A stretch of DNA of 64,000 bases, taken from the NCBI GenBank assembly GCA_029565935.1, contig JAKQNF010000027.1, positions 6,905-70,904 of the forward strand. The letters run 5' to 3'. A program made the position numbers and the translations under genes. Positions within the stretch are counted from its first letter, which is position 1. Each line of letters starts with the position of its first letter. Of the stretch, positions 12,655 to 44,807 are shown one piece after another. Source of the stretch: Bacillota bacterium. Lineage in GTDB: Bacteria; Bacillota; DTU025; MWDF01. Under the pieces are notes generated by a model. It saw only the letters and a list, made by a program, of their open reading frames with translations, was not told the origin of the DNA and made no database searches.

Positions 12655-12782
12655 GCCTTACTGTTGTCAACCGGACCGCTTGGGCGGTACGGTGAGAAGC
12701 GGATGCTTCTTCTTGTTTCAGTTCTTAGTCATGTTACCAATTTGCGGCCCCCGTGTCAAGCAACGAGGCCAAAGTCCCTGGT

Positions 12783-14979: not shown

Positions 14980-14983
14980 CCAT

Positions 14984-15058
14984 GTGGAGGCGACACCCGG
15001 ATTTGAACCGGGGAATCGCGGTTTTGCAGACCGCTGCCTTACCACTTGGCTATGTCGC
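14984..15058 (-). tRNA. tRNA-Cys(GCA)
   Basis: GGCGACATAGCCAAGTGGTAAGGCAGCGGTCTGCAAAACCGC... Confidence 0.85.
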
Positions 15059-15094
15059 CCTGGCCCCGATTCAACGGGTACTTCCTTAAAGCCT

Positions 15095-15169
15095 ATGGAG
15101 CGGAAAACGGGATTCGAACCCGCGACCCCCGCCTTGGCAAGGCGATGCTCTACCGCTGAGCTATTTCCG
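15095..15169 (-). tRNA. tRNA-Gly(GCC), copy 1 (identical to 60381-60455)
   Basis: GCGGAAATAGCTCAGCGGTAGAGCATCGCCTTGCCAAGGCGG... Confidence 0.85.
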
Positions 15170-15183
15170 CAAGTTTCCAAGGA

Positions 15184-15259
15184 ATGGTGCCGAGGGGCGG
15201 AATTGAACCGTCGACACGGGGATTTTCAGTCCCCTGCTCTACCATCTGAGCTACCTCGG
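15184..15259 (-). tRNA. tRNA-Phe(GAA)
   Basis: GCCGAGGTAGCTCAGATGGTAGAGCAGGGGACTGAAAATCCCC... Confidence 0.85.
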
Positions 15260-15264
15260 CATTA

Positions 15265-15341
15265 TTGGCGGAAGCGACGGGAGTCGAACCCGCGATCTCC
15301 TGCGTGACAGGCAGGCATGTTAGACCACTACACCACGCCTC
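15265..15341 (-). tRNA. tRNA-Asp(GTC)
   Basis: GGAGGCGTGGTGTAGTGGTCTAACATGCCTGCCTGTCACGCAGG... Confidence 0.8.
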
Positions 15342-15361
15342 CGCGATTATCGCAAGCTTCC

Positions 15362-15438
15362 TGGTGGGCGAAACAGGACTCGAACCTGTGACCCCCTGCG
15401 TGTAAAGCAGATGCTCTGCCAGCTGAGCTATTCGCCCC
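15362..15438 (-). tRNA. tRNA-Val(TAC)
   Basis: GGGGCGAATAGCTCAGCTGGCAGAGCATCTGCTTTACACGCAGG... Confidence 0.85.
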
Positions 15439-15526: not shown

Positions 15527-16456
15527 TTAACTGCCTGCTACAGACTCTTTACGCAATTGCTTCGCGATGAACTTGCGCCCGTAGTTGAACAAGAACTGGT
15601 TGGCGAATCCCGCCAAATTGCCGAATGCCGCTTCCGCCCACCGCCTGATCTGCTTGTGGCTTACCTTGCCGTCGTCGAAGTAAAGATGCCTTACTATCCT
15701 CTCTATCCAAACATCGACGGGGAATGCCTCGTACTTGCCCATGGAGAAGAGAAGTATGCAATCAGCCACTTTCTCACCTATGCCGTGCAGCATCAGAAGC
15801 TCCTGTTTCGCCTCGGGGTAGTCCATGCTGGCTATGCTTTCCAAGTCCACGTAGCCTTCTAGTACGCCTCTGGCGGCCTCGCAGATACCCTTCGTCCTGA
15901 ACCCGGCCTTGCAGGCCCATACCCCTTCGTGCCCGGCGTCCACGAGCTGGTCCGGCGACGGGAACTTGCTGAAGCTCCCGAAAGGGCCTTCCGCCCGGTC
16001 TCCGTACATCTCCGCGAGATTTTCCATGACCCTGGATATGTTGGGTACGCCGTTGTTCGCCGATATTATGAAGGCGATCAGCGTCTCCCATGGTTCTTGC
16101 CTTAGCGTCCTCAGCCCCGACGATGCCGCGACTGCGCGGCGCATCACGTCATCTGTCGACTCCAGCTCCCTTTCGATGGCGCCTTGGTCTAGGTCTAGGG
16201 CCAGGTACTTCGCGATGAAAATGGCATCATGCTCGCTTTCGGCACCTTCCAGGAAAACGCTGTCCCCTTCCTGGCTCAGCCTGAGCTGTTTTCCCAAGAC
16301 AACACCCTGATAGCAGCCATCCATCTTCTTCCATCTGAAGGCCTGCCCGCCGCACAATGTTGATTCAAGATCGCAAGGACCTTCCGGCCGCAGAATATAT
16401 CCTTCCTTGGCGTCCGTGTTGAAACGCTCGACGCGCGGTCCTTCCTGATCACTCAT
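15527..16456 (-). CDS. ogg: 8-oxoguanine DNA glycosylase/AP lyase, Ogg1-like (HhH-GPD)
   Basis: 309 aa. HhH-GPD segment LHGIGEKVADCILLFSMGKYEAFPVDVWIERI with Ogg1-like Lys/Asp spacing. Confidence 0.6.
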   Translation of the reverse strand: MSDQEGPRVERFNTDAKEGYILRPEGPCDLESTLCGGQAFRWKKMDGCYQGVVLGKQLRLSQEGDSVFLEGAESEHDAIFIAKYLALDLDQGAIERELESTDDVMRRAVAASSGLRTLRQEPWETLIAFIISANNGVPNISRVMENLAEMYGDRAEGPFGSFSKFPSPDQLVDAGHEGVWACKAGFRTKGICEAARGVLEGYVDLESIASMDYPEAKQELLMLHGIGEKVADCILLFSMGKYEAFPVDVWIERIVRHLYFDDGKVSHKQIRRWAEAAFGNLAGFANQFLFNYGRKFIAKQLRKESVAGS

Positions 16457-19214
16457 GCCCCAGCATCCCCACCAGCAGTCTGATTATCCTTCCCAGCTCT
16501 TGCTGCGCTTCGCCGTACCCTGCCCAATCCGACGATTTAAGGCATTCCTCGGCCTTTATGAAGAGCCTCTCGGCTTCGGCGGCAAGTGATCTGGGGTCCT
16601 CGGAGACCGCGGCCTTGATGCCCAGGTCGGCCTCGCTCTCGCCTATCAGCATGGCCAAAGACTCCGCAAGGGAGCTGCCCATGGCTATCCTCGTGCCGTC
16701 GGATACCAAGACCAGTTTCAACTGCGGCAGCTGGCTCCTTTCGGCGGCCAGGAATATGGGCTCGACGTAAAGTACCGAATGGTCGATAGGATAGACAAGC
16801 AGGTTCCCCCTTATCACGCTTGAGCCTTTCTGGTTCCAGAGCGCGAACAGCTTGGAGACTTCGGAATCCTGGTCAATCTGGGACTCTATCTGCATGGGGC
16901 CGTAGAATATCCTTTGCTTGGAGAACTTGTAGACGATCGCCCTGCCGTACTCGTCCTTGTCGCACAGGCCAGCGAGCCAAGAAACCATGTTGTTCTTCTT
17001 CGAAGGAGTGAAGGGGATCATCGCGAGGAACTTCTGGCCCTCGTCCGCAAGTCCCGGCAACGCCATGTTCACATAGTACGGGCTGACCTCTGCCGTGCCG
17101 GAGCCGTAAACTTCCATCGGTACGCTCCATAGGTCCTCCTTGTTATAGAACACCGACGGGTCCTCCATGTGGTACATAGCGTACATCCTAGCCTGGGCCA
17201 GGAACATGTCCTCCGGGTATCTGTAATGCGTCCTTATGTCATCCGGCATGTTCGCTCCATCCTCGAACAGCCCAGGGAATATTCTGGAATAGGCCTGTGC
17301 AAGGGGATCCTCTTCGTCGATGATGTAGAACGACACCGAGCCGTCGTATGCGTCTATCACTGCCTTGACGCTGTTGCGCATGTAGTTGGGCCCCCTGCCC
17401 CACGTACTGTAGCCCTCAAGAGGCTGCGAGTAGGGATATGCATCGGTATAGGTGTAGGCGTCGGCAACCCATTTCAGCCTACCCCCGGATATCACGATGT
17501 AGGGATCCTGGTCGTACCAGAGGAACGGGGCCAGGCTCCTGAGTCTTTCGCTTATCTGCCTTTTGTACAGCATGCGGCTATCTTCGGTAAGGTCCGCGGA
17601 CAGTAGCATCTTCACGGTCCCGAACCTGTACGAGAACGCGAGCTTCCTGAAGAAGGTGTCAATAGCCACACCACCCTCAGCCTGCCATCTGGTCTCAGCG
17701 TTCTGCTCGCCCAAGGGGTAGTCGAACTCCTCGGTGTTCGTGTCGACTATCGCATAATCGTTTGTCATCTCACCGAAGTAGATCTCAGGTCGCGTTATAC
17801 CGAAAGCAGGGTTGCCCGCCGGGGGTATGTCCTTTAGGAAATATGTGGGAAGTCCCTCCGATGTGGCCTCGTTGACGGGGCTTATCACAAGGCCGTAGCC
17901 GTGCGTGTACTTCAAGTGCCTGTTGATCCACGTCTGCGCCTGCTGCGGCAGGCTGTCAACGTCCATCTCCCTTGCCGTGAGCATGACCTGTCTCATCCCG
18001 CCGTCCACCATGTACCTGTCTATGTCCACGTCATAGAAGCTGTAATACAGCCTCATCTCCTGCAGCTGGGACAACGTGGCGAGAAGGGGCTCCCAGTCCC
18101 ACAGCCTGATGTTGTCAACCGTACGCGCGTTTTTAGCAAGGTCCGCCGACGTTATGTCCCCGTCGGACACGAAATCCCTTTCCTCTATCTTGTCCAGGTT
18201 ATAGGCGGCCCTGGTGGCCTTTATGTTGTACTCGATGAATCTCTTCTCGGCGGCAAGTTCGTTGGGCTCCACGTACCATTGCTGCACCAGGCCGGGCACC
18301 ACCGTGCCCGCGAGGAATGAGCCGAATACCATTATCGCGCCCGCAGCAATTACCGGCTTCAGCCCTTTGCCCCTTATGAGGGCGTACGCTATTAGCCCGG
18401 CGGCGACCAGGCACAGTCCCATCATCACCTTGAGACCGGGCAGCGTGCCGTACAAGTCTGCGTAGCTAGCACCGAACGCGACTCCCCTGGGAGAGTACAC
18501 AAGATTGTACATGTCCAGCAGGTAGCCTATCGCCCTGACGGCGAACGCCATGAGGACGAGCAATATTAGATGATTCCTTTTGCTCGTGCCGATCTTCACG
18601 TACTTCATCCTGTAGGATCTGCGCCTTTTCGTGCCGAACGGACCGGGCATGTCCACATCATAAGGTTCGGCCTTCAGCGCTCCTATTAGATAAGCTATGC
18701 TTGTGGTTGCTATCGCGGTCACGGCTATTTGCATGGCCCCTCCATAGAGGAACGAGAACAGGGGCATCTTGAACACGTAGAAGGATGCGTCCAACCCGAA
18801 AATTGGATCATTGCTCCCAAAGCTGACCGCATTCAGGAACTGCTGCACTTTCATCCAGTTAGCGCCCATGGAGAAACCAGCCGAGAGTCCAGCTATAATG
18901 GCTACGATGAAAGCTACGCTGGATATGCTCCTTGCGGCGGCATCTCTACCTCCCGACTCCTTGTGCACGTTCCTCCGTATCACGGCGGCATTTGCGGCCA
19001 TGAGTGCCAACACCAGCGCGAAGGCTGCAAGGCCCGTTAGCACCGACGTACCCATCCTCTTGATGAAAACCGCCTTCTGGCCCAAGTCCTCGAACCACCA
19101 CAGCTCCGTGAGCAGCGTACTGAGCACGGGCATTATTACGGTGAGGAAGATCGCCACCACCACGGCTACCCCAATTAGGACAGCCGTCCACGTCTTAAGA
19201 TGCCTATTCCTCAT
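16449..19214 (-). CDS. UPF0182-family large polytopic membrane protein (921 aa)
   Basis: Multiple N-terminal TM helices plus large extracytoplasmic domain. Resembles the UPF0182/COG1615 family by recall. Overlaps ogg start by 8 nt. Confidence 0.55.
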   Translation of the reverse strand: MRNRHLKTWTAVLIGVAVVVAIFLTVIMPVLSTLLTELWWFEDLGQKAVFIKRMGTSVLTGLAAFALVLALMAANAAVIRRNVHKESGGRDAAARSISSVAFIVAIIAGLSAGFSMGANWMKVQQFLNAVSFGSNDPIFGLDASFYVFKMPLFSFLYGGAMQIAVTAIATTSIAYLIGALKAEPYDVDMPGPFGTKRRRSYRMKYVKIGTSKRNHLILLVLMAFAVRAIGYLLDMYNLVYSPRGVAFGASYADLYGTLPGLKVMMGLCLVAAGLIAYALIRGKGLKPVIAAGAIMVFGSFLAGTVVPGLVQQWYVEPNELAAEKRFIEYNIKATRAAYNLDKIEERDFVSDGDITSADLAKNARTVDNIRLWDWEPLLATLSQLQEMRLYYSFYDVDIDRYMVDGGMRQVMLTAREMDVDSLPQQAQTWINRHLKYTHGYGLVISPVNEATSEGLPTYFLKDIPPAGNPAFGITRPEIYFGEMTNDYAIVDTNTEEFDYPLGEQNAETRWQAEGGVAIDTFFRKLAFSYRFGTVKMLLSADLTEDSRMLYKRQISERLRSLAPFLWYDQDPYIVISGGRLKWVADAYTYTDAYPYSQPLEGYSTWGRGPNYMRNSVKAVIDAYDGSVSFYIIDEEDPLAQAYSRIFPGLFEDGANMPDDIRTHYRYPEDMFLAQARMYAMYHMEDPSVFYNKEDLWSVPMEVYGSGTAEVSPYYVNMALPGLADEGQKFLAMIPFTPSKKNNMVSWLAGLCDKDEYGRAIVYKFSKQRIFYGPMQIESQIDQDSEVSKLFALWNQKGSSVIRGNLLVYPIDHSVLYVEPIFLAAERSQLPQLKLVLVSDGTRIAMGSSLAESLAMLIGESEADLGIKAAVSEDPRSLAAEAERLFIKAEECLKSSDWAGYGEAQQELGRIIRLLVGMLGHE

Positions 19215-33462: not shown

Positions 33463-33512
33463 CGCATCATAGAAATGGCCGCCCCCGCGCAAAGCAGAGC
33501 GCGGGGGCGGCC
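33463..33512 (-). terminator. 14-bp perfect GC hairpin (GGCCGCCCCCGCGC/GCGCGGGGGCGGCC) after rnfB: terminator of the rnf-containing transcript
   Basis: Read directly 13 nt downstream of rnfB stop. Confidence 0.6.
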
Positions 33513-33524
33513 ACGGTAGATGTC

Positions 33525-34352
33525 CTAGGCTTCTACTCTAAGGTCCGAATCGGGGCCGAACAGGTTGTGTATGCACTTGACCGGGCATTTCTGTACGCAA
33601 ATGCCGCACTTCGTACACTTCGAGTTGTCGATCACCGCTACGGTCCCGTTCATGCTGATGGCGCTAGTCGGGCAGTTCTTGACACATATCTGGCATCCGA
33701 TGCAGACCGCCGAGCAGTCCTGCTTGCTCTTGGGGATCGGGGCCTTCGAGCAGCAGACTACGTTCACCGGCTCCTCCGCGCTCCTAAGAGCGAGGAGCTT
33801 CCTGGGACAGACAGATACGCACTTGCCGCAGCCGGTGCACTTCGAGTCGTCTATCTTTGGCAGGCCGTCCTCTCCCATGTACATGGCATCGAACGGGCAC
33901 TCCCTGACACAAGAGCCGATGCCGAGGCAACCGTACGAGCAGGCCTTGAACCCACCGCTCACAGCGTTGGCAGCGGCGCAGGTGTCTATGCCCTTGTACT
34001 CGGCGATGTCCTTCGCTATCCCTTTCCCGCCGGCGCACATGAGCCTTGAGAACTTAGGGCCGTCTCCCGCTTCCAGCGCGACGCCCATTATCTCCGCGAT
34101 CTTCGCCGCCACACTTGAGCCGCCGACAAGGCACGATCCGCAAGGTGCCTTCTCCTCGCTTATCGCCTTGGCGAGCCCGTTGCAACCGGGATATCCGCAT
34201 GCGCCGCAGTTGGCGCCCGGCAGGACTCCTAGTATCATGTCTACCTTGGGATCGTGCTCCACTGCGAGCAGCTTCGCCGCCACGGCCAGGGCCACTCCGA
34301 ACACGAGGCCCATGCCACCCAGTATAAGAAGGCTGTTAACAATCATTTCCAC
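33525..34352 (-). CDS. rnfB: Rnf complex subunit B (poly-ferredoxin)
   Basis: N-terminal TM plus multiple CxxCxxCxxxCP clusters. Confidence 0.85.
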   Translation of the reverse strand: MEMIVNSLLILGGMGLVFGVALAVAAKLLAVEHDPKVDMILGVLPGANCGACGYPGCNGLAKAISEEKAPCGSCLVGGSSVAAKIAEIMGVALEAGDGPKFSRLMCAGGKGIAKDIAEYKGIDTCAAANAVSGGFKACSYGCLGIGSCVRECPFDAMYMGEDGLPKIDDSKCTGCGKCVSVCPRKLLALRSAEEPVNVVCCSKAPIPKSKQDCSAVCIGCQICVKNCPTSAISMNGTVAVIDNSKCTKCGICVQKCPVKCIHNLFGPDSDLRVEA

Positions 34353-34372
34353 TCACCCCCGTAAGCCGTCGA

Positions 34373-34969
34373 TCATAGGCCGAACAGCTTCTCGAGGTTG
34401 AAACCGGAGAAGCCAAGGAAAGCCATCGCCATCTGCGCGGTTATGATCAGCGCCAGAGGGAAGCCCTGGAAGGACTTCGCTATAGGCGCGGTATTGAGCT
34501 TTTCCCTCAGGGCGGCCATCGCTATTAGGACAAGGGAGAACCCTATCCCGCCTCCCGTGCCAGAGATAACCGCCTGGATGAAGTTATACCCTTCGCGTAC
34601 GTTGATCACGGCGACGCCGAGCACGGCGCAGTTGGTCGTGATGAGCGGCAGGTAGATGCCCAACGCCCTGTAAAGCGTGGGGCTCATCTTCAGGATAATC
34701 ATCTCGATCAGCTGGACCAGCGCCGCGATGACGAGGATGAAGGAGACCGTCTGCAGGAAGCCCAGTCCGAGGGGTACCAGCAGGTAATACTGGACCATCC
34801 AGGTGACCGCGGCGGCCAGGCTCATCACGAATATGACGGCGGCGGCCATGCCCATCGCGGTGTCGAACTGGTTCGACACGCCAATGAAGGGGCAGGTGCC
34901 CATTATCCTGGCCAGCATGTAGTTGTTTACGAGTATCGTGCTAAGCAGTATTATAAAGAGCTCTTTCAT
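34373..34969 (-). CDS. rnfA: Rnf complex subunit A
   Basis: 198 aa, 6-TM, RnfA/NqrE-like. Confidence 0.85.
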   Translation of the reverse strand: MKELFIILLSTILVNNYMLARIMGTCPFIGVSNQFDTAMGMAAAVIFVMSLAAAVTWMVQYYLLVPLGLGFLQTVSFILVIAALVQLIEMIILKMSPTLYRALGIYLPLITTNCAVLGVAVINVREGYNFIQAVISGTGGGIGFSLVLIAMAALREKLNTAPIAKSFQGFPLALIITAQMAMAFLGFSGFNLEKLFGL

Positions 34970-34974
34970 GACCG

Positions 34975-35631
34975 CTATACCTCCTTCGCGGCACAGGCTG
35001 CGCTAGCCTGCTTGGCCTTCTTGCTCCTGCTCGTGATCCCGTTGATCGACGCGAGCACGAAGCCGAGGGTCATGAAGCCGCCTACCGGCTTGTCTACCAG
35101 GGCCGCTGCGAACTTGGCGGGTATGAGCTTTATGCCTTCGAAACCGAAGTCCTTGGCGTAGAGTATCTTGCCCGTCGCTATGGGCTCCCTTATTATCGCA
35201 AGGATGATCACTGCCAACGTGAAGCCGAGCCCCATACCCAGGCCGTCGGCGATCGAATCGACGACGCCGTTCTTGTATGCGAACGCCTCTGCCCTCGCCA
35301 GGATGATGCAGTTGACGACTATCAGAGGCACGAACACGCCCAATATCCTGTGCAGGTCCGGCAGATAGGCGGCCATGCTCAGGTCTACGATCGTCACGAA
35401 CGTGGCGATGACGACGATGAAGCAGGGTATCCTGATCTTGTCGGGTATCATGTTCCTGAGGGCCGATATGAACAGGTTGCTGAATACTAGGACGAACGTA
35501 GCCGCGAGGCCCATGCCTACCGCATTGGACACGGCCGTTGAAGATATCATCGCGGGACACATGCCTATAAGCATGGCGAAGGTAGGGCTTTCGGCCCATA
35601 GGCCCTTCTTGAACTCCTTGAATGCGCTCAT
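34975..35631 (-). CDS. rnfE: Rnf complex subunit E
   Basis: 218 aa RnfE/NqrD-like membrane protein. Confidence 0.85.
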   Translation of the reverse strand: MSAFKEFKKGLWAESPTFAMLIGMCPAMISSTAVSNAVGMGLAATFVLVFSNLFISALRNMIPDKIRIPCFIVVIATFVTIVDLSMAAYLPDLHRILGVFVPLIVVNCIILARAEAFAYKNGVVDSIADGLGMGLGFTLAVIILAIIREPIATGKILYAKDFGFEGIKLIPAKFAAALVDKPVGGFMTLGFVLASINGITSRSKKAKQASAACAAKEV

Positions 35632-35645
35632 TGCCGCCTACCCCC

Positions 35646-36206
35646 TTACATCCCGAGGAGGGCCTTGGCTATATTGAGGGCCTTGTTGACCCCCGCCACG
35701 GCACCCTTGGAAGAAATCGTGGCGCCCGAAATCCCGTCAATCTGGCCGCCCTCTTTCACTAGGGACAGTACGCCCTTCTTGCCGGCGAACTGGCCGTAGA
35801 ACGGCTCCTCCTTGACGTTGGCGCCCAGGCCGGGTGTCTCGCTCTGGCTGATGACCTGCATACCTTGGCATACGCCCTGGGTATCCATGCCCACCAGCAT
35901 CGTGATCATCCCGCCGTATCCTGCGCTCTCGACCTTGACGATCGCGCCGACGGTCGAGCCGGCAGCTTTACCCAGATAGGCCTCCACGACCCCCTGTGCC
36001 CCGCCGGACGCTGCCGAGAGCTCTATCGCCGGTATCGGCTCGAAGTCGGTGGCCGAAGGAAGCACCACAGCCATCGCCTTCATGGCCTCCTTGGCCTGCC
36101 TCGCCTCAATGATTACGCTGGTCTTGCTGTAGACGAATGCAAGCGACACGCCCGATATCACGCAGATGACCGTCAGTATCGCACCGTATCTGATGAAATC
36201 ACGCAC
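35646..36206 (-). CDS. rnfG: Rnf complex subunit G (FMN-binding)
   Basis: DGISGATISSKGAV covalent-FMN motif. Confidence 0.85.
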   Translation of the reverse strand: MRDFIRYGAILTVICVISGVSLAFVYSKTSVIIEARQAKEAMKAMAVVLPSATDFEPIPAIELSAASGGAQGVVEAYLGKAAGSTVGAIVKVESAGYGGMITMLVGMDTQGVCQGMQVISQSETPGLGANVKEEPFYGQFAGKKGVLSLVKEGGQIDGISGATISSKGAVAGVNKALNIAKALLGM

Positions 36207-37176
36207 GGTTGCGCACCTCCCCGAAACGCTTCTGCGCGCCGAACCTCTCGATGAGTGGCACGAAGCAGTTCATAAGAAGTATCGAAAACGCCACGCCCTC
36301 GGGGTAGCTCCCGAACATCCTTATCATGAACGTGAATATCCCGAGCCCGACGGCGTAGACTATCTGTCCCGCAGGTTTTATCGGGCTGGTCACATAGTCC
36401 GTCGCCATGAAGAAGGCGCCGAGTATGAGACCGCCTGAGAGCAGGTGGAATATGGGGTCCTGGTTGAAGAGCATCGCAAGGCCTGCGGTCGTCAGCAAGT
36501 ACACGAGAGGTATCCTCAAGGTTATGATCCCGGCGAACAGCAGGAAAAGCGCCCCGATGAGAAGAGCTATCGCCGAAGTCTCGCCGAGCGATCCTCCCAC
36601 GTTCCCGAAGAAGAGTGGTCCGTAGAACCTGGACAGCGAAGTAGCGCCGATCTCCCCCGTCTTAAGGAGGCCGAGAGGCGTCGCCGACGCCACTACGTCG
36701 AATCCGCGCTTCCATGCGGTTATCCCGTCCGCTGCGACATATCCTGCGCTAAGCACCGAAGGCCAGGAAAGGGCCGCGAAAGTCCTGCCTATAAGGGCAG
36801 GGTTGAAGATGTTGTAACCCAGGCCGCCGAACACGATCTTGCCGGGGCCTATCGCTATGAGGCAAGCAAGTGCGGTGACCCAAGGCTCTACCGCCGGAGG
36901 CAGCGTTAACGCCACCAGTAGTCCGGTCAATGCCGCCGAGCCGTCGCTTATAGTAATATCGAACTTCCATATCTTCTGGATCGCATATTCCCAAAGGACC
37001 GCTGAAGCCACGCCTACCACCAGGTTGATGGCGGCCCAAGGGCCGAAGAAATAGACTCCGCACAGGGCCGCGGGCATCAACGCGATGAAGACGACCTGCA
37101 TTATCCTCGGTGTCGCGACCCTGTCCCTCAAGTGGGGCGCTGCGGTGATTATTAGGCCTTTTTCGGACATGTCCAT
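36199..37176 (-). CDS. rnfD: Rnf complex subunit D
   Basis: RnfD/NqrB-like polytopic protein. Start approximate (MDMSEKG). Track ORF overlaps rnfC end. Confidence 0.8.
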   Translation of the reverse strand: MDMSEKGLIITAAPHLRDRVATPRIMQVVFIALMPAALCGVYFFGPWAAINLVVGVASAVLWEYAIQKIWKFDITISDGSAALTGLLVALTLPPAVEPWVTALACLIAIGPGKIVFGGLGYNIFNPALIGRTFAALSWPSVLSAGYVAADGITAWKRGFDVVASATPLGLLKTGEIGATSLSRFYGPLFFGNVGGSLGETSAIALLIGALFLLFAGIITLRIPLVYLLTTAGLAMLFNQDPIFHLLSGGLILGAFFMATDYVTSPIKPAGQIVYAVGLGIFTFMIRMFGSYPEGVAFSILLMNCFVPLIERFGAQKRFGEVRNRA

Positions 37177-37183
37177 CACCCCG

Positions 37184-38497
37184 TCACTTCTTGCGCCTGG
37201 CCAAGGCATATTGCTTGGCCAGCTTAATCGACTGCACCAACGGCCTCTTCGAGGGGCAAACGTACGAGCAGCACCCGCATTCCATGCAGTCGGCGGCGAA
37301 TAGTTTCTCCGCCCTGGCCATGTCTTCGGCCAGCGCGTATTTATGAATCTCCGAAGGCTGCAGGAACATCGGGCAGACCTCGTTGCACCTGCCGCACCTT
37401 ATGCAAGGCATCTCCTTCCAGAAGAGCGCCTGCTGCCGTCCCAGCAGCACTATGCCAGAGGTGCCTTTGGTTATGGGGAAGTCCAGGCTAGGCACGGCGA
37501 CTCCCATCATGGGACCGCCGAATATTGCCTTGCCGAGCTCTCCCTTGACGCCCCCGCACAGCTCTACGAGTTCGGACGCATATGTCCCGATGTAGGCCTC
37601 CACGGTAGCAGGCCTGCTTACGGCCTCGCCGGATACCGTTACGTACCGCTTGATCAAAGGCAGGCCTGTCGTGAACCTGTCGGAGATGGCGGCTGCGGTC
37701 CCGACGTTAACCACTACGACCCCTACGCTGAATGGCAGCGCACCCGGAGGCACCTCGCGGCCCAGCGTCGCTTTTATGATGGCCTTCTCATACCCTTGCG
37801 GGTAACTGGATTTCAAAGGCATCACCTCGATGCCCTGGTACTTGCCGGCCGCGGCCGTGAGCGCCGCTATGGCGTCGGGCTTATTGTCCTCGACGCCTAT
37901 GATGGCCCTCTTCACGCCGACGCTCCTCATGACTATGTAGGTGCCGTGGACCACCTTGTCGGCCTTCTCCGTCATCATCCTGTGGTCGGAGGTGAGATAA
38001 GGTTCGCACTCGCCGCCGTTGACCACCACGGTGTCCACTTTCACTCCCTGGGGCAGCGACAGCTTAACATGGGTGGGGAACTCGGCCCCTCCCATCCCCA
38101 GCATGCCGGCTTCCCTGATGACGTTCCTGATTTCCTCCGGAGTCATCGAATCCAAGTCCTCGACCGGCGCGATCCCCTCGCATAGCTCCTGCTTCCCATC
38201 CGATTCGATCGTTATGCCAAGGAACTCCAGCCCTGTATGGGCCCTATATGGCTTAGCATCCACTACCTTGCCGGATACCGGGGAGTGCGTCGGAACGCAC
38301 ATGAAGCCCTCGTTGTCCGCCAACTTCTGACCCACCTTGACTTCGGTCCCCTTGGGAGCCAGCACTTTGTAGCCTACCCACGAAGGACCTACCGGCACCG
38401 TCACCCTTGCCGGCACGGGCGCCGTGACAGTCCCGGCATCGCACGCATACTTGCACTGTGCCGGGTGTATGCCTCCGACGAACGTCCTTACAGCCAT
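37184..38497 (-). CDS. rnfC: Rnf complex subunit C (NADH-binding, 2x[4Fe-4S])
   Basis: CIRCGRCNEVCP and CMECGCCSYVCP ferredoxin motifs. 437 aa. Confidence 0.9.
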   Translation of the reverse strand: MAVRTFVGGIHPAQCKYACDAGTVTAPVPARVTVPVGPSWVGYKVLAPKGTEVKVGQKLADNEGFMCVPTHSPVSGKVVDAKPYRAHTGLEFLGITIESDGKQELCEGIAPVEDLDSMTPEEIRNVIREAGMLGMGGAEFPTHVKLSLPQGVKVDTVVVNGGECEPYLTSDHRMMTEKADKVVHGTYIVMRSVGVKRAIIGVEDNKPDAIAALTAAAGKYQGIEVMPLKSSYPQGYEKAIIKATLGREVPPGALPFSVGVVVVNVGTAAAISDRFTTGLPLIKRYVTVSGEAVSRPATVEAYIGTYASELVELCGGVKGELGKAIFGGPMMGVAVPSLDFPITKGTSGIVLLGRQQALFWKEMPCIRCGRCNEVCPMFLQPSEIHKYALAEDMARAEKLFAADCMECGCCSYVCPSKRPLVQSIKLAKQYALARRKK

Positions 38498-38533
38498 CTA
38501 TCTCACTCCTTGTCGGTTGGTAGCCTTGGAGCA

Positions 38534-40213
38534 CTAGAACAGGTTCAGTATAGTACCGTCTTCCAGTATGTCGATGCTGTTGGCGGCCGGGACCTTCGGC
38601 AGGCCGGGCATTGTCATGACCTCTCCTGTTATCGCCACGATGAAGCCCGCGCCGGCGGATATCCTAATCTCCTTTACCGTAAGCTTCCAGCCTCTCGGCC
38701 TTCCCTTTATGTCGGCTATGTCGGTGAGGGAATGCTGGGTCTTGGCCACGCATACCGGCAAGTCGCCGTAGCCTATCCTCCTTATGGTGCCCAGCATGTT
38801 CTTTGCGGAATCCGAGAATAACACGTCGTCCGCACCGTAGACTTTCGTCGCAAGCGTCTTGATCTTCTCCTCCGCCGTCAGCTCGAGGCCGTAGAGCATC
38901 CTGAAGTCGTTGGCGTCCTTCTCGAGCGCCTCGAGCACCTGCTCTGCAAGCTGCCTGCCACCGTCTCCGCCCTTGGCGACGACCTCTGACACCGCATAGC
39001 GCACGCCGCGCTCCTTGCAGCGCCTCTCGATCAGTTCTAGCTCCTCCTGGCTGTCGGTGGGGAACTTGTTTATGGCCACTACTACGGGAAGGCCGAAGTT
39101 GTCCTTGAGGTTATCGATATGGGCATCGAGGTTCTCGCAGCCCTTCGCCAGTGCGTCGAGGTTGGTCTCGGACACTTTGTCCTTGGGCACGCCGCCGTGC
39201 ATGTTGAGCGCCCTGACCGAGGCGACCAGCACCGCCACATCGGGCTTGAGGCCGGTCTGCCTATGCACTATGTCGAAGAACTTCTCGGCGCCCAGATCGG
39301 AGGCGAAACCGCCCTCGGTGACTACGTAGTCGGCCAGCTTGAGGGCCAGCTTAGTAGCCAATATAGAGTTGTTACCGTGGGCTATGTTCGCGAAAGGCCC
39401 GCCGTGAATGAAGGCCGGCTGGCCCTCGACGGTCTGCACGAGGTTCGGCTTTATTGCGTCCTTGAGGAGCACCGCCATCGCGCCTACCGCCTTTATGTCG
39501 GCAGCGGTGACGGGCTTCCTGTCATAGGTATAGGCCACTATTATGCGTCCTAGCCTCGCCTTCAAGTCTTCCATGCCAGAGGCGAGGCAGAGTATGGCCA
39601 TCACTTCCGACGCAACGCTTATGTCGAAGCCGCTCTCCCTGGGCATGCCGTTGCTTATGCCGCCCAGCCCGCAGACTATGTCCCTCAGCTGCCTGTCGTT
39701 CATGTCCATCACGCGCTTCACCAATACCCTCCTGGGATCGATGTTCAGCGCGTTACCCTGGAAGATGTGGTTGTCCAGCAGCGCAACCATGAGGTTGTGG
39801 GCTGCGGTCACCGCATGGATGTCGCCCGTGAAGTGCAGGTTTATGTCCTCCATCGGCAGCACCTGCGAGTATCCTCCGCCTGTCGCCCCGCCCTTGATCC
39901 CGAACACAGGACCTAGGGAAGGCTCCCTCAAAGCTACCGTCACTCTCTTGCCCATCTTGCCCAGTGCCTGCGTAAGGCCTATCGCCGTGCAGGTCTTGCC
40001 CTCGCCGGCGGGAGTGGCGGTGATAGCGGTCGTGTAGATCAGCTTCCCGTTAGGATTGTCCTTCAGCCTGTCAAGCAGGCTGAGGGGAAGCTTGGCCTTG
40101 TATCTTCCATAATATTCCAGGTCTTTCTCGGCAATGCCGATCGAAGCCGCTATCTGCTGGATCGGCTTAAGCTCGGTGGCCTGTGCAATTTCAATATCGC
40201 TAGGAATTGGCAT
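38534..40213 (-). CDS. fhs: Formate--tetrahydrofolate ligase
   Basis: 559 aa. MPIPSDIEIAQ...TPAGEGKTCT P-loop typical of FTHFS. Confidence 0.9.
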   Translation of the reverse strand: MPIPSDIEIAQATELKPIQQIAASIGIAEKDLEYYGRYKAKLPLSLLDRLKDNPNGKLIYTTAITATPAGEGKTCTAIGLTQALGKMGKRVTVALREPSLGPVFGIKGGATGGGYSQVLPMEDINLHFTGDIHAVTAAHNLMVALLDNHIFQGNALNIDPRRVLVKRVMDMNDRQLRDIVCGLGGISNGMPRESGFDISVASEVMAILCLASGMEDLKARLGRIIVAYTYDRKPVTAADIKAVGAMAVLLKDAIKPNLVQTVEGQPAFIHGGPFANIAHGNNSILATKLALKLADYVVTEGGFASDLGAEKFFDIVHRQTGLKPDVAVLVASVRALNMHGGVPKDKVSETNLDALAKGCENLDAHIDNLKDNFGLPVVVAINKFPTDSQEELELIERRCKERGVRYAVSEVVAKGGDGGRQLAEQVLEALEKDANDFRMLYGLELTAEEKIKTLATKVYGADDVLFSDSAKNMLGTIRRIGYGDLPVCVAKTQHSLTDIADIKGRPRGWKLTVKEIRISAGAGFIVAITGEVMTMPGLPKVPAANSIDILEDGTILNLF

Positions 40214-40227
40214 GCGTGCACCTCCAT

Positions 40228-41637
40228 CTATGATCTCGATCTTATGTACTGGTCTATGCCTCTTGCCGCCTGCTTGCCCGCGCCCATGGCGGCTATCACT
40301 GTTGCCGCTCCGGTGACTATGTCGCCTCCGGCGAAGACGCCTGGGATGCTCGTGGCTCCGTAATCGTCGTTTATCTCTATGTATCCGCGCTTGTTGAGGC
40401 CCAGCGCCTTCGTGTTCCTGGTTAGAACTGGATTCGGGCCCTGTCCTATGGCCACGACCACCGTATCGGCCTCTATCTCGAACTCAGACCCTTCCACAGG
40501 CACAGGCCTGCGCCTTCCGCTCGCGTCCGGTTCTCCGAGCTCCATCCTCTGGCATACCATCTTCTTCACTATGCCCTGCTCGTCTCCCACTATCTCGACG
40601 GGATTCGTCAGCAGGTTCAGCTTGACGCCCTCTTCCTCGGCGTTTTCGATCTCCTCGATCCTCGCGGGCATCTCCTGCCTGGATCTCCTGTAGACTATCT
40701 GCACGTCCTCGGCACCCAGCCTGAGCGCAGTCCTTGCGGAGTCCATGGCGACGTTCCCGGCACCCACCACGCATACCCTCTTGCCTATCCTTACGGGGGT
40801 CCCGTAGCAGGGGAACTTGTAGGCCTTCATGAGGTTGACCCTGGTGAGGAACTCGTTGGCGGAGTATACGCCGTTGAGGTTCTCGCCCGGTATGCCAAGA
40901 AAGTACGGCAGGCCCGCGCCAGTGCCTATGAACACGGCGCTGTAGCCCTCCTTCTCCAGCAGCTCCTCGAGGCCTATGCTCATCCCTATCACGGCATTGG
41001 TCACTATCCTTACGCCGAGCTGCTTCACGTACGCCACTTCCCTGTCGACGATGTTCTTCGGGAGCCTGAACTCAGGTATGCCATACCTTAGCACTCCTCC
41101 CGTCTCGTGAAGCGATTCGTATATGTCGACCTGGTATCCCATCAAGGCAAGGTCGGCCGCGCAGGTCAGCCCGGACGGGCCGGATCCTATTACCGCCACT
41201 TTGGGTGCGCCGTCGGCGGCCCTCCTTTCGACTTCCTGCTTTGAGTGCGCCCTTTCGTAGTCCGATACGAAACGCTCCATGTAGCCGATGGCAACGGGCT
41301 TGAACTTCTTTCCGAGGGTGCAGACGCTTTCGCACTGCGTCTCCTGAGGGCAGACCCTGCCGCACACCGCCGGTAGGCTGTTCTTCTCCTTGATCTTCAA
41401 GGACGCTTCGATGAACTTGCCCTCTGCGGCAAGTGCCAAGAACTCCGGGATGGGCACCTCTACCGGGCAGCCCGCCACGCAGGGCCTCGTCTTGCACTGC
41501 AAGCAGCGCATCGCCTCGGCCTGGGCAGTCTGTTCGCTAAGACCCTGGGCCACTTCATTGAAATTCCTCGCCCTTTCCTCAGGGCTCTGCTTGGGCATCT
41601 CTGGCCTAGCTGAAAAATCTCTTACCGACATCTGCAA
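40228..41637 (-). CDS. nfnB: NfnB/GltD-like NADPH-dependent FAD oxidoreductase with 2x[4Fe-4S] (electron-bifurcating transhydrogenase large subunit or SudA)
   Basis: CLQCKTRPCVAGCPVEVPIPEF plus Rossmann GSGPSGL. 469 aa. Confidence 0.75.
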   Translation of the reverse strand: MQMSVRDFSARPEMPKQSPEERARNFNEVAQGLSEQTAQAEAMRCLQCKTRPCVAGCPVEVPIPEFLALAAEGKFIEASLKIKEKNSLPAVCGRVCPQETQCESVCTLGKKFKPVAIGYMERFVSDYERAHSKQEVERRAADGAPKVAVIGSGPSGLTCAADLALMGYQVDIYESLHETGGVLRYGIPEFRLPKNIVDREVAYVKQLGVRIVTNAVIGMSIGLEELLEKEGYSAVFIGTGAGLPYFLGIPGENLNGVYSANEFLTRVNLMKAYKFPCYGTPVRIGKRVCVVGAGNVAMDSARTALRLGAEDVQIVYRRSRQEMPARIEEIENAEEEGVKLNLLTNPVEIVGDEQGIVKKMVCQRMELGEPDASGRRRPVPVEGSEFEIEADTVVVAIGQGPNPVLTRNTKALGLNKRGYIEINDDYGATSIPGVFAGGDIVTGAATVIAAMGAGKQAARGIDQYIRSRS

Positions 41638-42464
41638 CCCTCCCCGGACCTATGCTTGTCGAGAGCTAGGCGCTCCTCCTCGCGGAAGAACGTCTGGCGC
41701 TTAATAAGCTCGTCGAAGTCCACCTCATGGGCATCGAACTCCGGGCCGTCCACGCACGAGAACTTGGTCTGCCCGGCCACCGTAACCCTGCAGCAGCCGC
41801 ACATGCCGGTGCCGTCCAGCATGGTGGCGTTGAGGCTCACCGTGGTCTTGACGCCGAATTTTCTCGTGACGTCAGCGCAAGCTTTCATCATGCGCACGGG
41901 GCCGATCGCCACGACCTCGTCGGCCGGCTTGCCCGACTTGATGTACTCCTCCAGGGCCTGGGTGACAAAACCGTGGAAGCCGCAGCTGCCGTCATCGGTG
42001 CAGAGGATCATCTCGCTCGATACCATGGTCGCGGTGTCTCTCAGCACGTACAGGTTCTCGGTCCTCGCGCCGAGTATGGTCACGACCTTGTTGCCCACCC
42101 TCATATGCTCCTTGATCTGGGGGATCAGCGGAGCGATGCCGATTCCTCCCGCTACGGCAAGTACTGTGCCCACCTTCTCGATCTTCGTCGGCTTCCCACA
42201 GGGGCCCAATACGTCGGCGAGCAGGGAGCCTTCCTCGTACTCGCACAGTTTCATGGTTGAGGCGCCGATCTCCTGTACGACTATGGTTATCGTGCCCAGC
42301 TTCTCATCGTGCTCGACTATGGTAAGTGGGATCCTTTCGCCCTTCTCGTCCGCCCTGACCATGACGAAATTGCCCGGTTTAGCTGCCTTGGCCACGAGGG
42401 GCGCTTCCAGTACGAACATATACACGGACGGAGCCAGCAGCTTCTTCGCAATAATCCTATGCAT
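41622..42464 (-). CDS. nfnA: NfnA/SudB-like FAD/[2Fe-2S] electron-transfer subunit
   Basis: 280 aa PyrK-like fold with C-terminal CGCCRV...C cluster. Overlaps nfnB start by 16 nt. Confidence 0.75.
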   Translation of the reverse strand: MHRIIAKKLLAPSVYMFVLEAPLVAKAAKPGNFVMVRADEKGERIPLTIVEHDEKLGTITIVVQEIGASTMKLCEYEEGSLLADVLGPCGKPTKIEKVGTVLAVAGGIGIAPLIPQIKEHMRVGNKVVTILGARTENLYVLRDTATMVSSEMILCTDDGSCGFHGFVTQALEEYIKSGKPADEVVAIGPVRMMKACADVTRKFGVKTTVSLNATMLDGTGMCGCCRVTVAGQTKFSCVDGPEFDAHEVDFDELIKRQTFFREEERLALDKHRSGEGCRCR

Positions 42465-42479
42465 AACTAACCTGCCTTT

Positions 42480-43397
42480 CTACCATTTATGACAATTGAG
42501 ACAGTCCACTTCGAACCAGTCGCCGTGGCAGCTTTCGCACGATGCGTGGCTCAGCCCGTCGCCGGCAGGCACTAGCTGATCCGCATGGCAGCTTTCACAG
42601 CCGAAAGCGATATGTGAACCGTGAGGTATCTTCATATTTGCGGTCTCATTGAAATCGAGGTTGATGTGACAGCTTTCGCAGCTCGGATCGGCCGCGTCGA
42701 ACCAGCCTTCGTGGCATGCCATACAAGTGCCGTGCCCGATCTTGCCCTCTGCGCCCAACACGTACTCCACATGGCAGTCCTGGCAGCCCAGGAAGCTGTG
42801 CGTCTCATGCGGGATCGCAAGCTTCTCCGTAGCGGTCACGGTCGACTTGATGTGGCACTTCGCGCAGTCCGCCGTATCTTTAGCGAACCATTCCTGGTGG
42901 CACGTGATGCACTTGTCGTGACTTATCGCCCTCATGGGCTGGCCGTCGATCCCATGGACCACTCCTTCGTGGCAGTCATAGCAGGCAATGTCCAAACCTG
43001 CCGAATGGATCGAATGTGGTATCGCCACCTCATCCGTCCCGCCCGAGTTCGCAGCGTTCGCATGGCATCTCGTGCAGAACCCGTCATCCACCTGTATGCC
43101 CGCGAAGCTGGTGGCGCCTCCCGCCTTCTCTACCTTCCTCATCCTCGCAATCGAGAACCTGTTCTCGAACCAGCCCTTGAAGCCCGGCTTCATGTGGCAC
43201 TCGGCGCATCCCGTCTTGGAGTGCGCGCCCATGGCCCAGGTATCCGCCGAAGGCTGCATCGAATGGCAAGAACTGCAGTACTTGTCGGTCTCCGTATAGG
43301 CGGCGGCCGCGACTACTCCCCCGATGGCTACCAAAAGCACTAGCAGCACCACTCCTTGTGAAAAACCCCTTTTGAACAAAACAGGCCTGCTGGACAT
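42480..43397 (-). CDS. Membrane-anchored dodecaheme cytochrome c (12 CxxCH motifs)
   Basis: N-terminal TM helix then CSSCH, CAECH, CTRCH, CYDCH, CITCH, CAKCH, CQDCH, CMACH, CESCH x3, CLNCH. Three IPHxxH segments indicate an internally triplicated module. Confidence 0.85.
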   Translation of the reverse strand: MSSRPVLFKRGFSQGVVLLVLLVAIGGVVAAAAYTETDKYCSSCHSMQPSADTWAMGAHSKTGCAECHMKPGFKGWFENRFSIARMRKVEKAGGATSFAGIQVDDGFCTRCHANAANSGGTDEVAIPHSIHSAGLDIACYDCHEGVVHGIDGQPMRAISHDKCITCHQEWFAKDTADCAKCHIKSTVTATEKLAIPHETHSFLGCQDCHVEYVLGAEGKIGHGTCMACHEGWFDAADPSCESCHINLDFNETANMKIPHGSHIAFGCESCHADQLVPAGDGLSHASCESCHGDWFEVDCLNCHKW

Positions 43398-43430
43398 GAG
43401 AATATACCCCCTTGAATTCCTTAGGGTCGG

Positions 43431-44078
43431 TTATGCGTAGAAAGCCAGGCTCTGGAGCGATACCGTCACGTCTGCGTTGCTCACCCTCACGTTCTCGGGG
43501 ACTATCAGGGTGGCCGGGCTGAAGTTGAGAAATGCTTTGACACCGGCTTCGATGCAGATGTCGGCCATCTTCTGGGCCGCTTCCGCCGGCACGGTAAGCA
43601 CGGCTATCTTTATGCCGCTCTTTACGATTACGTCCTTGAGCATGTTTACGTGATAGGCGGGCACTGAATCGAACGGGCCCTGTTTCAAGACTTCCTCGTC
43701 TATGTCGAATCCGGCCTCTATCGTCAAGTTCTTGTATCCGCTGTTCCTCTGCCCGCTGTCGCGCTTGTAGGCGTTGTAGTGTATGATGGCCTTGCCCATC
43801 CTTCCAAGGCCTACGATGGCTATCTTCACGTCCTGGTCGAGCTTCAGTATGGTCAGCAACTGCTTCTTGAGCGTCGATATCTTGTAGCCGACCCCCTGCT
43901 TGCCGAAGCCTCCGAAGATCGTAAGGTCCTTCCTTACCTGGGTTGGGGACGTCCCCGTAACATCTCCGAGCTCCTTTGACGATACTATCGAAAGCCCCGC
44001 GTTCTCAAGATTGTCAAGCGCTCTGAGGTACATGGGCAACCGTCTGACGACTACGTCGGGCACCTTCTGGTCGCTCAT
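43431..44078 (-). CDS. rex: Redox-sensing transcriptional repressor Rex
   Basis: VVRRLPMYLRALDNL winged-helix N-terminus plus Rossmann GxGxxG (VGLGRMG). Confidence 0.9.
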   Translation of the reverse strand: MSDQKVPDVVVRRLPMYLRALDNLENAGLSIVSSKELGDVTGTSPTQVRKDLTIFGGFGKQGVGYKISTLKKQLLTILKLDQDVKIAIVGLGRMGKAIIHYNAYKRDSGQRNSGYKNLTIEAGFDIDEEVLKQGPFDSVPAYHVNMLKDVIVKSGIKIAVLTVPAEAAQKMADICIEAGVKAFLNFSPATLIVPENVRVSNADVTVSLQSLAFYA

Positions 44079-44096
44079 ACGAAAAACCTCCGATTC

Positions 44097-44552
44097 TCAG
44101 TTCGATGTTGTCCTTCCGGGGCAGGAAACCTCCCCCGGGTCGGCTTTTCCTGTGACTTTGGGGCAGAAGCTCCTCTTGTCCAGCCCCATATCGTACTTCC
44201 TCACTCCGAAGTAAGTCAGGGCGAGGAACGTGAAGCCCCCTATCACCGAAAAGAGGTCGGACGAGCCTTTCATGCCGAAGTAGCCCGCAACCCCGTTGCC
44301 GGTAACGATGCCCGCGAGGAAACCGAGCAGCGGCAACCCGTAGGCTATGCCGGCGGCCTTGAGGACGTCCCCGTCCTTCATCTCCACCACGACGTAGTCC
44401 CCCGGCTCGACCTCGGTCTCGCATATGGCCTTTACCCGCTTGGCGTTCGAAGAAGGCTGGCACATGCCGCAGCCCCTGCAGGCCTGCGGCCTCGTAATCT
44501 CGAGAACGGCCCAGCCCTTCTCCAAGGACAGGACCTTTCCTAGTTGCTGCAT
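44097..44552 (-). CDS. rseC: RseC/MucC-family small membrane protein (Rnf-associated)
   Basis: 151 aa. N-terminal Cys motif ACRGCGMC then two TM helices. Confidence 0.65.
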   Translation of the reverse strand: MQQLGKVLSLEKGWAVLEITRPQACRGCGMCQPSSNAKRVKAICETEVEPGDYVVVEMKDGDVLKAAGIAYGLPLLGFLAGIVTGNGVAGYFGMKGSSDLFSVIGGFTFLALTYFGVRKYDMGLDKRSFCPKVTGKADPGEVSCPGRTTSN

Positions 44553-44738
44553 GATTCATCCCCACTGCCGATTACCGCACTCCTGCGGCTTTTTGGCCGT
44601 CCGCGGAAATCCAACTAGAATTATACAACAACTCTTCACAAAGTTCTAAAAAACGTCTTGCTCGGCTTCAGATGTGCCTTTCTGCGTCCGGACGCTGGGA
44701 TAAAAGAAAACCCTGAACTATAAGTCCAGCTAAACAAA

Positions 44739-44776
44739 ATTGATTCCGGCATCTTACGCATGATTGCCGGAATCAA
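44739..44776 (-). terminator. 12-bp inverted repeat TTGATTCCGGCA...TGCCGGAATCAA plus TTTTGTTTA: terminator after HATPase gene, insulating it from the rseC operon
   Basis: Read directly 32 nt downstream of the 44808 stop. Confidence 0.5.
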
Positions 44777-44807
44777 GGGGAATCTGCATTGTATGAGTAA
44801 AAATACA

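Follow-up and report, generated by a model that had tools for sequence, protein, structure and literature searches.

A dodecaheme cytochrome gene within a conserved rseC-rex-nfnAB-fhs-rnf operon of uncultured Bacillota

The DNA analyzed here, a 64-kb stretch of contig JAKQNF010000027.1 from a Bacillota assembly (GCA_029565935.1; hereafter the window), carries twelve consecutive genes on its minus strand, between positions 33525 and 44552, which a map of open reading frames (ORFs) and Pfam scans place in the order rseC-rex-cytochrome-nfnA-nfnB-fhs-rnfC-D-G-E-A-B. This is a real operon, conserved in a clade of uncultured Bacillota that come mostly from anaerobic digesters. Its third gene encodes a membrane-anchored c-type cytochrome with twelve heme motifs, and we tentatively propose, at a likelihood that we put a little short of even, that this protein gives the Rnf/Nfn module encoded around it an electron branch outside the cytoplasm.

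The operon, its boundaries and its distribution

The initial annotation of this DNA was made from the letters and a list of ORFs, and its identification of all twelve genes proved right in Pfam scans and in matches to solved structures (Table 1). Each of the six Rnf subunits has its diagnostic domains, in the order C-D-G-E-A-B, and rnfCDGEAB are predicted to encode an ion-translocating ferredoxin:NAD+ oxidoreductase. The flavinylation-type motif of RnfG and its extracytoplasmic FMN_bind domain match what is seen in flavinylated RnfG proteins, and flavinylation is predicted here too. Judging from the gene call in the related locus L001, the true start of rnfD may lie 33 nt further downstream than that of the ORF. 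The assignment of the two nfn products to an NfnAB-type transhydrogenase is confirmed by near-full-length matches: the small subunit to the small subunit of NfnI from P. furiosus (5jca_S, 1.6e-90, residues 1-271) and to 4ylf_A (2.3e-75), the large one to T. maritima NfnB (4ylf_B, 1.7e-178, residues 12-466) and to 5jca_L (3.7e-152). Rex has both its winged-helix domain and its Rossmann NADH domain.

Table 1. Genes and control elements of the operon, with positions in the window; lengths are in amino acids (aa) and scores are those of Pfam profiles.
Feature	Position	Strand	Description
Upstream terminator-like hairpin with U-tract	44741..44776	-	fold z -3.6; closes the DRTGG/HATPase_c_2 unit and marks the upstream boundary of the operon
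Promoter/operator box	44620..44642	-	TTTGTGAA-N5-GTTGTATAAT, also given as CTTTGTGAA-N4-TGTTGTATAATTC; perfect -10 TATAAT at 44625-44620
rseC	44097..44552	-	151 aa; PF04246 (RseC_MucC) 92 bits; N-terminal Cys cluster CxxCxxC...C; two predicted transmembrane helices
rex	43431..44078	-	215 aa; PF06971 and PF02629; GxGxxG motif; NADH/NAD+-sensing repressor family
Dodecaheme cytochrome gene	42480..43397	-	305 aa; Cytochrom_NNT (PF03264) and Cytochrome_C7 (PF14522)
nfnA	41622..42464	-	280 aa; small subunit of NADH-dependent ferredoxin:NADP+ oxidoreductase; DHODB_Fe-S_bind
nfnB	40228..41637	-	469 aa; large subunit; Fer4_20 and Pyr_redox_2
fhs	38534..40213	-	559 aa; formate-tetrahydrofolate ligase; PF01268 (FTHFS) 864 bits, residues 5-559, full length
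rnfC	37184..38497	-	437 aa; RnfC_N, Complex1_51K, SLBB and Fer4 domains
rnfD	36199..37209	-	336-aa ORF; PF03116 (NQR2_RnfD_RnfE) 346 bits
rnfG	35646..36206	-	186 aa; single FMN_bind (PF04205); N-terminal anchor; SGATIS flavinylation-type motif
rnfE	34975..35631	-	218 aa; PF02508 (Rnf-Nqr) 202 bits
rnfA	34373..34969	-	198 aa; PF02508 (Rnf-Nqr) 180 bits
rnfB	33525..34352	-	275 aa; PF04060 (FeS) and several Fer4 domains
Intrinsic terminator distal to rnfB	33468..33514	-	begins 10 nt past the rnfB stop; 16-bp GC stem (33514-33475), 8-nt loop, UUUCUAU tail

It is plausible that the twelve genes form a single transcription unit, a reading reached computationally that leaves room for internal promoters. 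We favor it because a terminator stands upstream, because the promoter box is invariant in seven species, because no spacer exceeds 36 nt and because a conserved terminator follows rnfB. In ORF coordinates the 11 junctions consist of spacers of 18, 33, 15, 14, 36, 14, 5 and 20 nt and overlaps of 16, 26 and 8 nt; the initial annotation was right about the tight packing and its maximum, and its range of 14-36 nt has to be widened to 5-36 nt. It had also claimed that no terminator-like hairpin interrupts the genes and that a strong one follows rnfB. The two longest tested spacers (33 and 36 nt) fold no better than shuffled sequences, the five terminator-like minus-strand matches within the block are weak (stems of 5-8 bp) and lie inside ORFs, every one of them, and the hairpin after rnfB is very stable (dG -45.5 kcal/mol, z -5.6), with analogous hairpins and U-tracts of differing sequence at the same place in loci L005, L001, L008 and L010. 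At the opposite end, the stop codon of the upstream HATPase_c_2 gene is at 44810-44808, and an alignment of the region upstream of rseC from seven species has hairpins of differing sequence at the position of the upstream terminator.

A promoter had been expected near 44560-44700, and the box that we find there is the one invariant block in the otherwise divergent intergenic region of the same alignment. It is unique in the window (0 expected by chance) and occurs once in each locus of the clade. Its -35 element is weak, and the spacer between -35 and -10 contains CTTTGTGAA, which resembles a Rex half-site. Within the block, the ribosome-binding site of rnfC (AAGGAGTGAGA) is invariant across the 7 species. 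The best sigma-70-like match for an internal promoter, at 38574-38547 upstream of rnfC, was set aside as unsupported, its synonymous positions varying among species.

Two small elements near the promoter deserve mention in their own right. Directly past the HATPase_c_2 stop lies a palindrome, TGTAT-N8-ATACA (44790-44807, minus strand), whose core bases are invariant in the seven species while the surrounding spacer has diverged, and which may be a protein-binding site. In the 5' leader of rseC, between the promoter box and the ribosome-binding site, there is a small hairpin, CCGCAggagUGCGG (44574-44589, minus strand); a different sequence in L001, AGCTGC...GCAGCT, is able to make the same fold. 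Rfam has no RNA family matching the block or its leader, this hairpin included.

A synteny comparison, which the initial annotation had recommended, recovered the same twelve-gene block in six species-level metagenome-assembled genomes (MAGs) when one genome per GTDB species was scanned. All are from uncultured Bacillota and most come from digesters (Firmicutes bacterium ADurb.Bin153, three "uncultured Clostridia", Bacillota Go_SlDig_bin_374 and MFD03899); the block is also present on JGI and ENA contigs. Gene order, spacing and flanks are identical in every locus of sufficient length. Synonymous divergence (dS) is 0.4-0.9 from the nearest genome and >1, at saturation, from the others, and the ratio of nonsynonymous to synonymous divergence (dN/dS) is 0.03-0.2 for all genes of the block. 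The RpoB of the window falls into the same 90% cluster as that of ADurb.Bin153, which NCBI taxonomy lists only as "unclassified Bacillota". A search of the open-access literature, which is weak as evidence of absence, returned no paper on the operon, on ADurb.Bin153 or on the cytochrome family.

The cytochrome and its 3+3n heme family

In the cytochrome we count exactly 12 CxxCH motifs, and 11 further histidines together with Met47 make up the number of distal ligands that 12 hemes require. At the N-terminus, positive charges are followed by a transmembrane helix. After the helix comes a head resembling NapC, NirT and NrfH (a CxxCHxM heme 1, then hemes 2-3), followed by three triheme c7-like repeats (PF14522, 55.6 bits, above its cut-off) and a C-terminal CHKW. 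The repeat unit starts after the third heme, is about 63 residues long and has the pattern IPHxxH...CxxCH...H..CxxCH...CxxCH. All 12 heme motifs are invariant among 7 orthologues. A dN/dS of 0.07-0.14 (0.14 against the nearest relative) points to clear purifying constraint, with the limits that the cytochrome has the highest ratio of the block in the comparison with the nearest genome and ranks with RseC and RnfG among the more divergent proteins of the block. From these sequence signals the protein is predicted to be functional and to face outward.

Only seven close homologue clusters of this protein occur among 5.8 billion proteins, and the public records bear automatic names, for example "cytochrome c3 family protein" or "NapC/NirT family cytochrome c". 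An exhaustive profile search added longer and shorter relatives, so that the family comprises proteins of 6, 9, 12, 21 or 30 hemes (3+3n) that differ only in the count of 63-residue triheme units: one in P0139 (6 hemes), two in P0140 (9), six in P0138 (21) and nine in P0137 (30). The head and first unit are collinear in all members, at 39-41% identity, and the C-terminal CHKW is common to all. A head and tip that stay constant while the length varies fit a distance-spanning conduit. The annotated start of P0140 is truncated, and a TTG start at L025:3042 restores its membrane helix and heme 1. Every family member recovered (including those of loci L020, L021, L024, L025 and L026) directly follows rseC-rex. 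Distant relatives of NapC/NirT type (25-29% identity) are found elsewhere, in classical multiheme, Rieske/cytochrome b or NiFe-hydrogenase/ResBC contexts, and not after rseC-rex.

The nature of the head raises the alternative that the cytochrome is a menaquinol dehydrogenase of the CymA/NrfH type (or a menaquinone reductase) which exchanges electrons through the quinone pool and makes no direct contact with Rnf, the operon then reflecting co-regulation of redox functions rather than a complex. Residues 22-78 of the cytochrome align with residues 24-80 of NrfH (2j7a_C), a quinol-oxidizing subunit, along the last part of the membrane helix and through the first two hemes, the first of them being CxxCHxM; with the NapC/NirT profile PF03264 the score is 34.5 bits, the cut-off being 24.1; and one distant relative, P0141, adjoins genes for a UbiE-type methyltransferase, a NiFe hydrogenase and ResB/ResC. 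However, the profile is matched in its first third only (positions 14-75 of 174), and the kinship with NapC/NirT/NrfH that is evident in the N-terminal helix and in the register of the first two hemes does not extend to the tetraheme architecture of the whole domain, given 12 CxxCH motifs. The 30-heme P0137, moreover, is without the methionine of CxxCHxM. A quinol dehydrogenase would also leave unexplained the strict place of the family after rseC-rex, RseC being a partner of Rnf/Rsx. We judge this alternative unlikely.

Sister loci and the origin of the arrangement

RnfC identity is 73-90% within the clade and falls sharply, to 52-54%, in the next relatives, which are abundant digester Bacillota whose locus occupies the same chromosomal place, upstream of maf-radC-mreB. 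In this sister lineage nfnA-nfnB-fhs are followed by the genes of a bifurcating-type [FeFe] hydrogenase, hydABC, and then by rnfCDGEAB, and further upstream stand DRTGG, HATPase_c_2, a HydS-like [FeFe] hydrogenase homologue, PHP, HATPase, rseC and rex. In L024 the series HydS-DRTGG-PHP-HATPase-rseC-rex leads to a 6-heme cytochrome gene, which is followed after a gap of 242 nt by nfnA-nfnB-fhs and further on by hydC; in L025 a 9-heme cytochrome gene after rseC-rex is followed by a NUDIX gene and then nfnA-nfnB-fhs. The Rex proteins of the cytochrome-bearing loci L020, L021, L024 and L025 are 66-67% identical to Rex of the sister type and 47-49% identical to that of the window.

These comparisons change the picture of how the operon arose. 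The initial annotation had read the window as a 6-kb insertion into the junction between rseC and rnfC. Its statement on Clostridium ljungdahlii was correct: there rseC is directly upstream of rnfC, and when it is deleted, autotrophy is lost and rnf is repressed (PMC9124969). In the window, five genes intervene between the two, and the sister loci likewise have genes between them. The insertion itself does not stand, as sister loci already hold rseC-rex-cytochrome, nfnAB-fhs, hydABC and rnfCDGEAB side by side; judged by gene order, this neighborhood is older than the divergence of the two lineages. The derived state is that of the focal clade, and deletion together with compaction is the best reading of how it came about. 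HydS-DRTGG-PHP-HATPase and hydABC appear to have been lost from the locus in this clade, a new promoter to have been acquired before rseC and the rest to have been fused without gaps. Neither the focal loci nor the 64-kb window contain genes for HydS or HydABC, both of which sister loci carry at this place, and a pattern search of the sister loci did not find the promoter box. The notion that the cytochrome replaced the hydrogenase was dropped: in L021, L024, L025 and L026 a cytochrome of the family coexists with the HydS module, and L024 in addition has hydC downstream.

Two peculiarities of sister contigs may be noted. The assembly GCA_024655925.1 has both rex and nfnB broken into two ORFs apiece (L024 5274-5967 and 7634-9108), by frameshift (decay) or by an assembly error. 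On the contig of L013, which is very abundant (~709x coverage), an insertion sequence element (HTH_Tnp_1 and rve; 2805-4066) lies between fhs and hydC.

Clusters in which HydS, a kinase, a phosphatase and Rex adjoin bifurcating HydABC are known from Clostridia. The sister-lineage loci show that layout, and about 50 nt before hydC they have a palindrome, TTGTGAA-N4-nnCACAA, that resembles a Rex box (L015 15645-15662; L013 5752-5769; L014 5712-5729). They differ from the known clusters in having RseC and the cytochrome in addition, and from the focal locus, where HydS, PHP, HATPase and HydABC have been lost. Group C sensory hydrogenases have been mentioned in earlier work (PMC12578642). Descent from such a hydrogenase-regulating cluster would account for the presence of rex in the focal operon. 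The initial annotation had advised a search for Rex boxes in the block, and that search yielded little: no canonical box (TTGTGAA-N4-TTCACAA type, ≤2 mismatches) was found in the window or the focal loci, near the block none appeared even at 2-3 mismatches or fewer, and what is conserved in the promoter is a half-site. This 9-mer of the rseC promoter, CTTTGTGAA, is identical to the left arm of the palindromes upstream of hydC in the sister loci. The full palindrome is lacking in the focal block, which leaves Rex control of the operon as a possibility; a single regulon that wires redox balancing, the cytochrome and C1 metabolism together is plausible.

The regulatory surroundings of the cytochrome in the sister lineage suggest another role, different from bulk conduction: the cytochrome and RseC would sense the redox state outside the cell or in the periplasm on behalf of the regulators of the genes for hydrogenase, Nfn and Rnf, namely Rex (and HydS, PHP and the kinase in the sisters). 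The operon that ends with the cytochrome gene in the sister lineage is mostly sensory or regulatory, and in E. coli RseC acts with Rsx in reducing the regulator SoxR. A sensor that grows from 6 to 30 hemes by the addition of identical wire units is hard to justify, however, and the focal clade keeps the cytochrome under purifying selection although the HydS, PHP and kinase genes are gone. We hold this role to be quite improbable.

The proposed role of the cytochrome

The electron branch that we favor starts from a cytoplasmic and membrane redox-balancing module that the operon encodes, composed of Rnf, NfnAB, Fhs, RseC, Rex and the membrane-anchored 12-heme cytochrome. Fhs would provide the ATP-coupled formate/formyl-tetrahydrofolate step of the Wood-Ljungdahl route, RseC would serve as a helper of Rnf and Rex as the sensor of NADH. 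The NapC/NirT/NrfH-like head would sit at the membrane surface and the nine further hemes, in three triheme units of c7 type, would act as a wire. The flavins of RnfG/RnfD that face outward, or else membrane quinone at the NrfH-like head, would be the point of exit or entry for electrons, and the wire would carry these to or from an external partner, which could be a methanogen, a conductive particle, humics or Fe(III). NADH and ferredoxin could in this way be re-oxidized without the formation of H2, which fits a locus that has no genes for HydS and HydABC where the sister lineage has them. A more specific version is possible, though we lean toward thinking it unlikely: RseC, Rex and the cytochrome would form a bacterial module that plugs a wire of adjustable length (3+3n hemes) into the outward flavins of Rnf, as a non-homologous counterpart of MmcA-Rnf, so that in uncultured digester Bacillota the oxidation of ferredoxin or NADH, with the pumping of ions, is coupled directly to electron transfer out of the cell or between species and not to the formation of H2, an arrangement completed in the focal clade.

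Several observations weigh against an electron branch of Rnf. A contact between Rnf and the cytochrome, whether physical or functional, is something that we infer. AlphaFold2, run on a 7-sequence alignment, gave an unusable model (pLDDT 40, pTM 0.23) in which the c7 fold was not confirmed. A wire of 12 hemes, about 10 nm long, may be too short for a thick Gram-positive wall. Among the genes of the window there are none for menaquinone synthesis (men/mqn), cytochrome c maturation, another multiheme cytochrome or a hydrogenase. In sister lineages the cytochrome gene closes the hydS-PHP-HATPase-rseC-rex unit and is separated from nfnA by 120-250 nt or a NUDIX gene, so its oldest linkage is to rseC-rex and not to rnf. 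In L021, where HydS and rseC-rex precede a 21-heme cytochrome gene, a gap of 125 nt and then an ATP-binding cassette transporter gene on the opposite strand follow; in L020, with SPOR-rseC-rex and a 30-heme cytochrome gene, no nfnA was detected in the 193 nt that remain on the contig; and L015, of the sister type, has no cytochrome gene and keeps the remainder. As to the block as a whole, co-directionality is uninformative, since nearly all genes of the 64-kb window are tightly spaced on the minus strand, and the flanks of the block (folC... on one side, maf-radC-mreB on the other) are syntenic across species as well, so that conserved order is not specific to the block.

These last two points, together with the possibility of internal promoters and the fact that the components are several separate units in the sister lineage, are also what would be expected if the genes were neighbors by descent and genome compaction only and the cytochrome had an unrelated role, for example in detoxification or in serving a reductase encoded elsewhere. 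Yet every member of the block is a redox or energy gene, the only internal promoter-like site is not conserved at synonymous positions, and no sister locus has the spacer-free fusion, which makes the compaction from promoter to terminator in the focal clade both derived and conserved. Mere neighborhood is, in our estimation, improbable.

As a functional model for the electron branch we propose MmcA-Rnf of Methanosarcina acetivorans (mmcA-rnfCDGEAB), in which the cytochrome hands electrons derived from Rnf to methanophenazine and to external acceptors such as anthraquinone-2,6-disulfonate and Fe(III) (PMC11024163). The two systems share a multiheme c-type cytochrome gene in one operon with rnfCDGEAB. 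MmcA, however, lacks a transmembrane helix, has 7 hemes of which two are on non-canonical motifs, is a relative of octaheme tetrathionate reductase and is encoded directly before rnfC (PMC11024163), whereas the cytochrome of the window has 12 canonical CxxCH motifs, a transmembrane helix, a NapC/NirT/NrfH head and c7-type repeats, and its gene is the third of the operon, with nfnA, nfnB and fhs between it and rnfC. Sequence searches of the PDB gave no match of octaheme tetrathionate reductase type to the window cytochrome. By sequence and domain layout, then, the protein is an analogue of MmcA and not a homologue.

For a coupling between a multiheme cytochrome gene and rnf, the initial annotation named Methanosarcina and had no case in a Firmicutes-like gene context. 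This is too narrow, and as a principle the linkage is not new, even for Bacillota. In Desulfovibrio, a multiheme cytochrome c encoded in the rnf operon has been proposed to link the periplasmic cytochromes with cytoplasmic NAD(H) and ferredoxin (PMC4287179). Such DhcA-type operons resemble the one described here in having the cytochrome gene inside a bacterial rnf operon; compared by description only, they differ in belonging to another phylum (Desulfobacterota) with a periplasmic cytochrome pool and in that no rex, nfnAB or fhs is reported in them. In Christensenellales, which are Bacillota, fusions of RnfG with multiheme or multiflavin parts have been proposed to open a second outward electron path from RnfG (Meheust et al., 10.1101/2021.01.07.425746), whereas here RnfG is an ordinary subunit with a single flavin mononucleotide domain and the cytochrome is a separate gene product with an anchor of its own.

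The cytochrome combines features of two further groups. With NapC, NirT, NrfH and CymA it has in common the N-terminal membrane helix, the CxxCHxM first heme and a second heme in register, but those proteins have 4 hemes (some 5), and the family described here has 3+3n and covers about a third of PF03264. The polymeric c7-type cytochromes of Geobacter, such as the dodecaheme GSU1996, are likewise chains of repeated triheme c7-like units; they are soluble and periplasmic, have no NrfH-like membrane head and stand in a different genomic context. What appears to be new is a separate family of NrfH-headed heme wires of 3+3n hemes tied to rseC-rex, the fusion of this cytochrome with rex, nfnAB, fhs and rnf into one operon, and a comparative series of hydrogenase-gene loss at a single locus.

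The remainder of the window is largely devoted to housekeeping. On one side of the block are rpoB, ribosomal protein genes, thrS, genes for RNase E/G, rodA, minC, a PBP2 gene, mreBCD, radC and maf, and on the other folC, valS, the EF-G gene, lon, clpX and tig. A 5S rRNA gene (10236-10352) lies inside a cluster of six tRNA genes (9975-10565), with no match to 16S or 23S rRNA in the window, and a second cluster of six tRNA genes is found at 14908-15437. The ORF at 9360-10175 overlaps tRNA genes, and its true start must therefore lie further downstream. An L20-leader RNA (RF00558, 60.2 bits) is located at 12613-12720 on the minus strand, downstream of thrS; its presence suggests that the plus-strand ORF at 11724-12617, which has no Pfam match, is spurious, infC-rpmI-rplT being on the minus strand there. 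The L27 ORF (19327-19884, minus strand; 185 aa) has its L27 domain at residues 102-180 only, and either its start is over-extended or an N-terminal extension is fused to it (Prp-like?). Amid the housekeeping genes there is also a membrane protein of the UPF0182 family (16449-19214, minus strand; 921 aa, 916 bits).

It is an open question by which routes Gram-positive syntrophs and acetogens of methanogenic reactors get rid of electrons when these leave neither as H2 nor as formate, and among Bacillota, routes that use cytochromes are known from no more than a few metal reducers in culture. The locus described here is a testable candidate for such a route, with one promoter for Rnf, Nfn, Fhs and an outward heme wire. 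Were the cytochrome an ordinary quinol dehydrogenase, the data would still describe a small cytochrome family and the compaction of an operon in an abundant uncultured lineage. RseC, whose part in the function of Rnf is unclear, gains a new conserved partner. The sister genomes, in which the locus may have hydrogenases, may have no cytochrome or may have wires of between 6 and 30 hemes, constitute a natural series that could show how one electron-sink strategy is exchanged for another in evolution.

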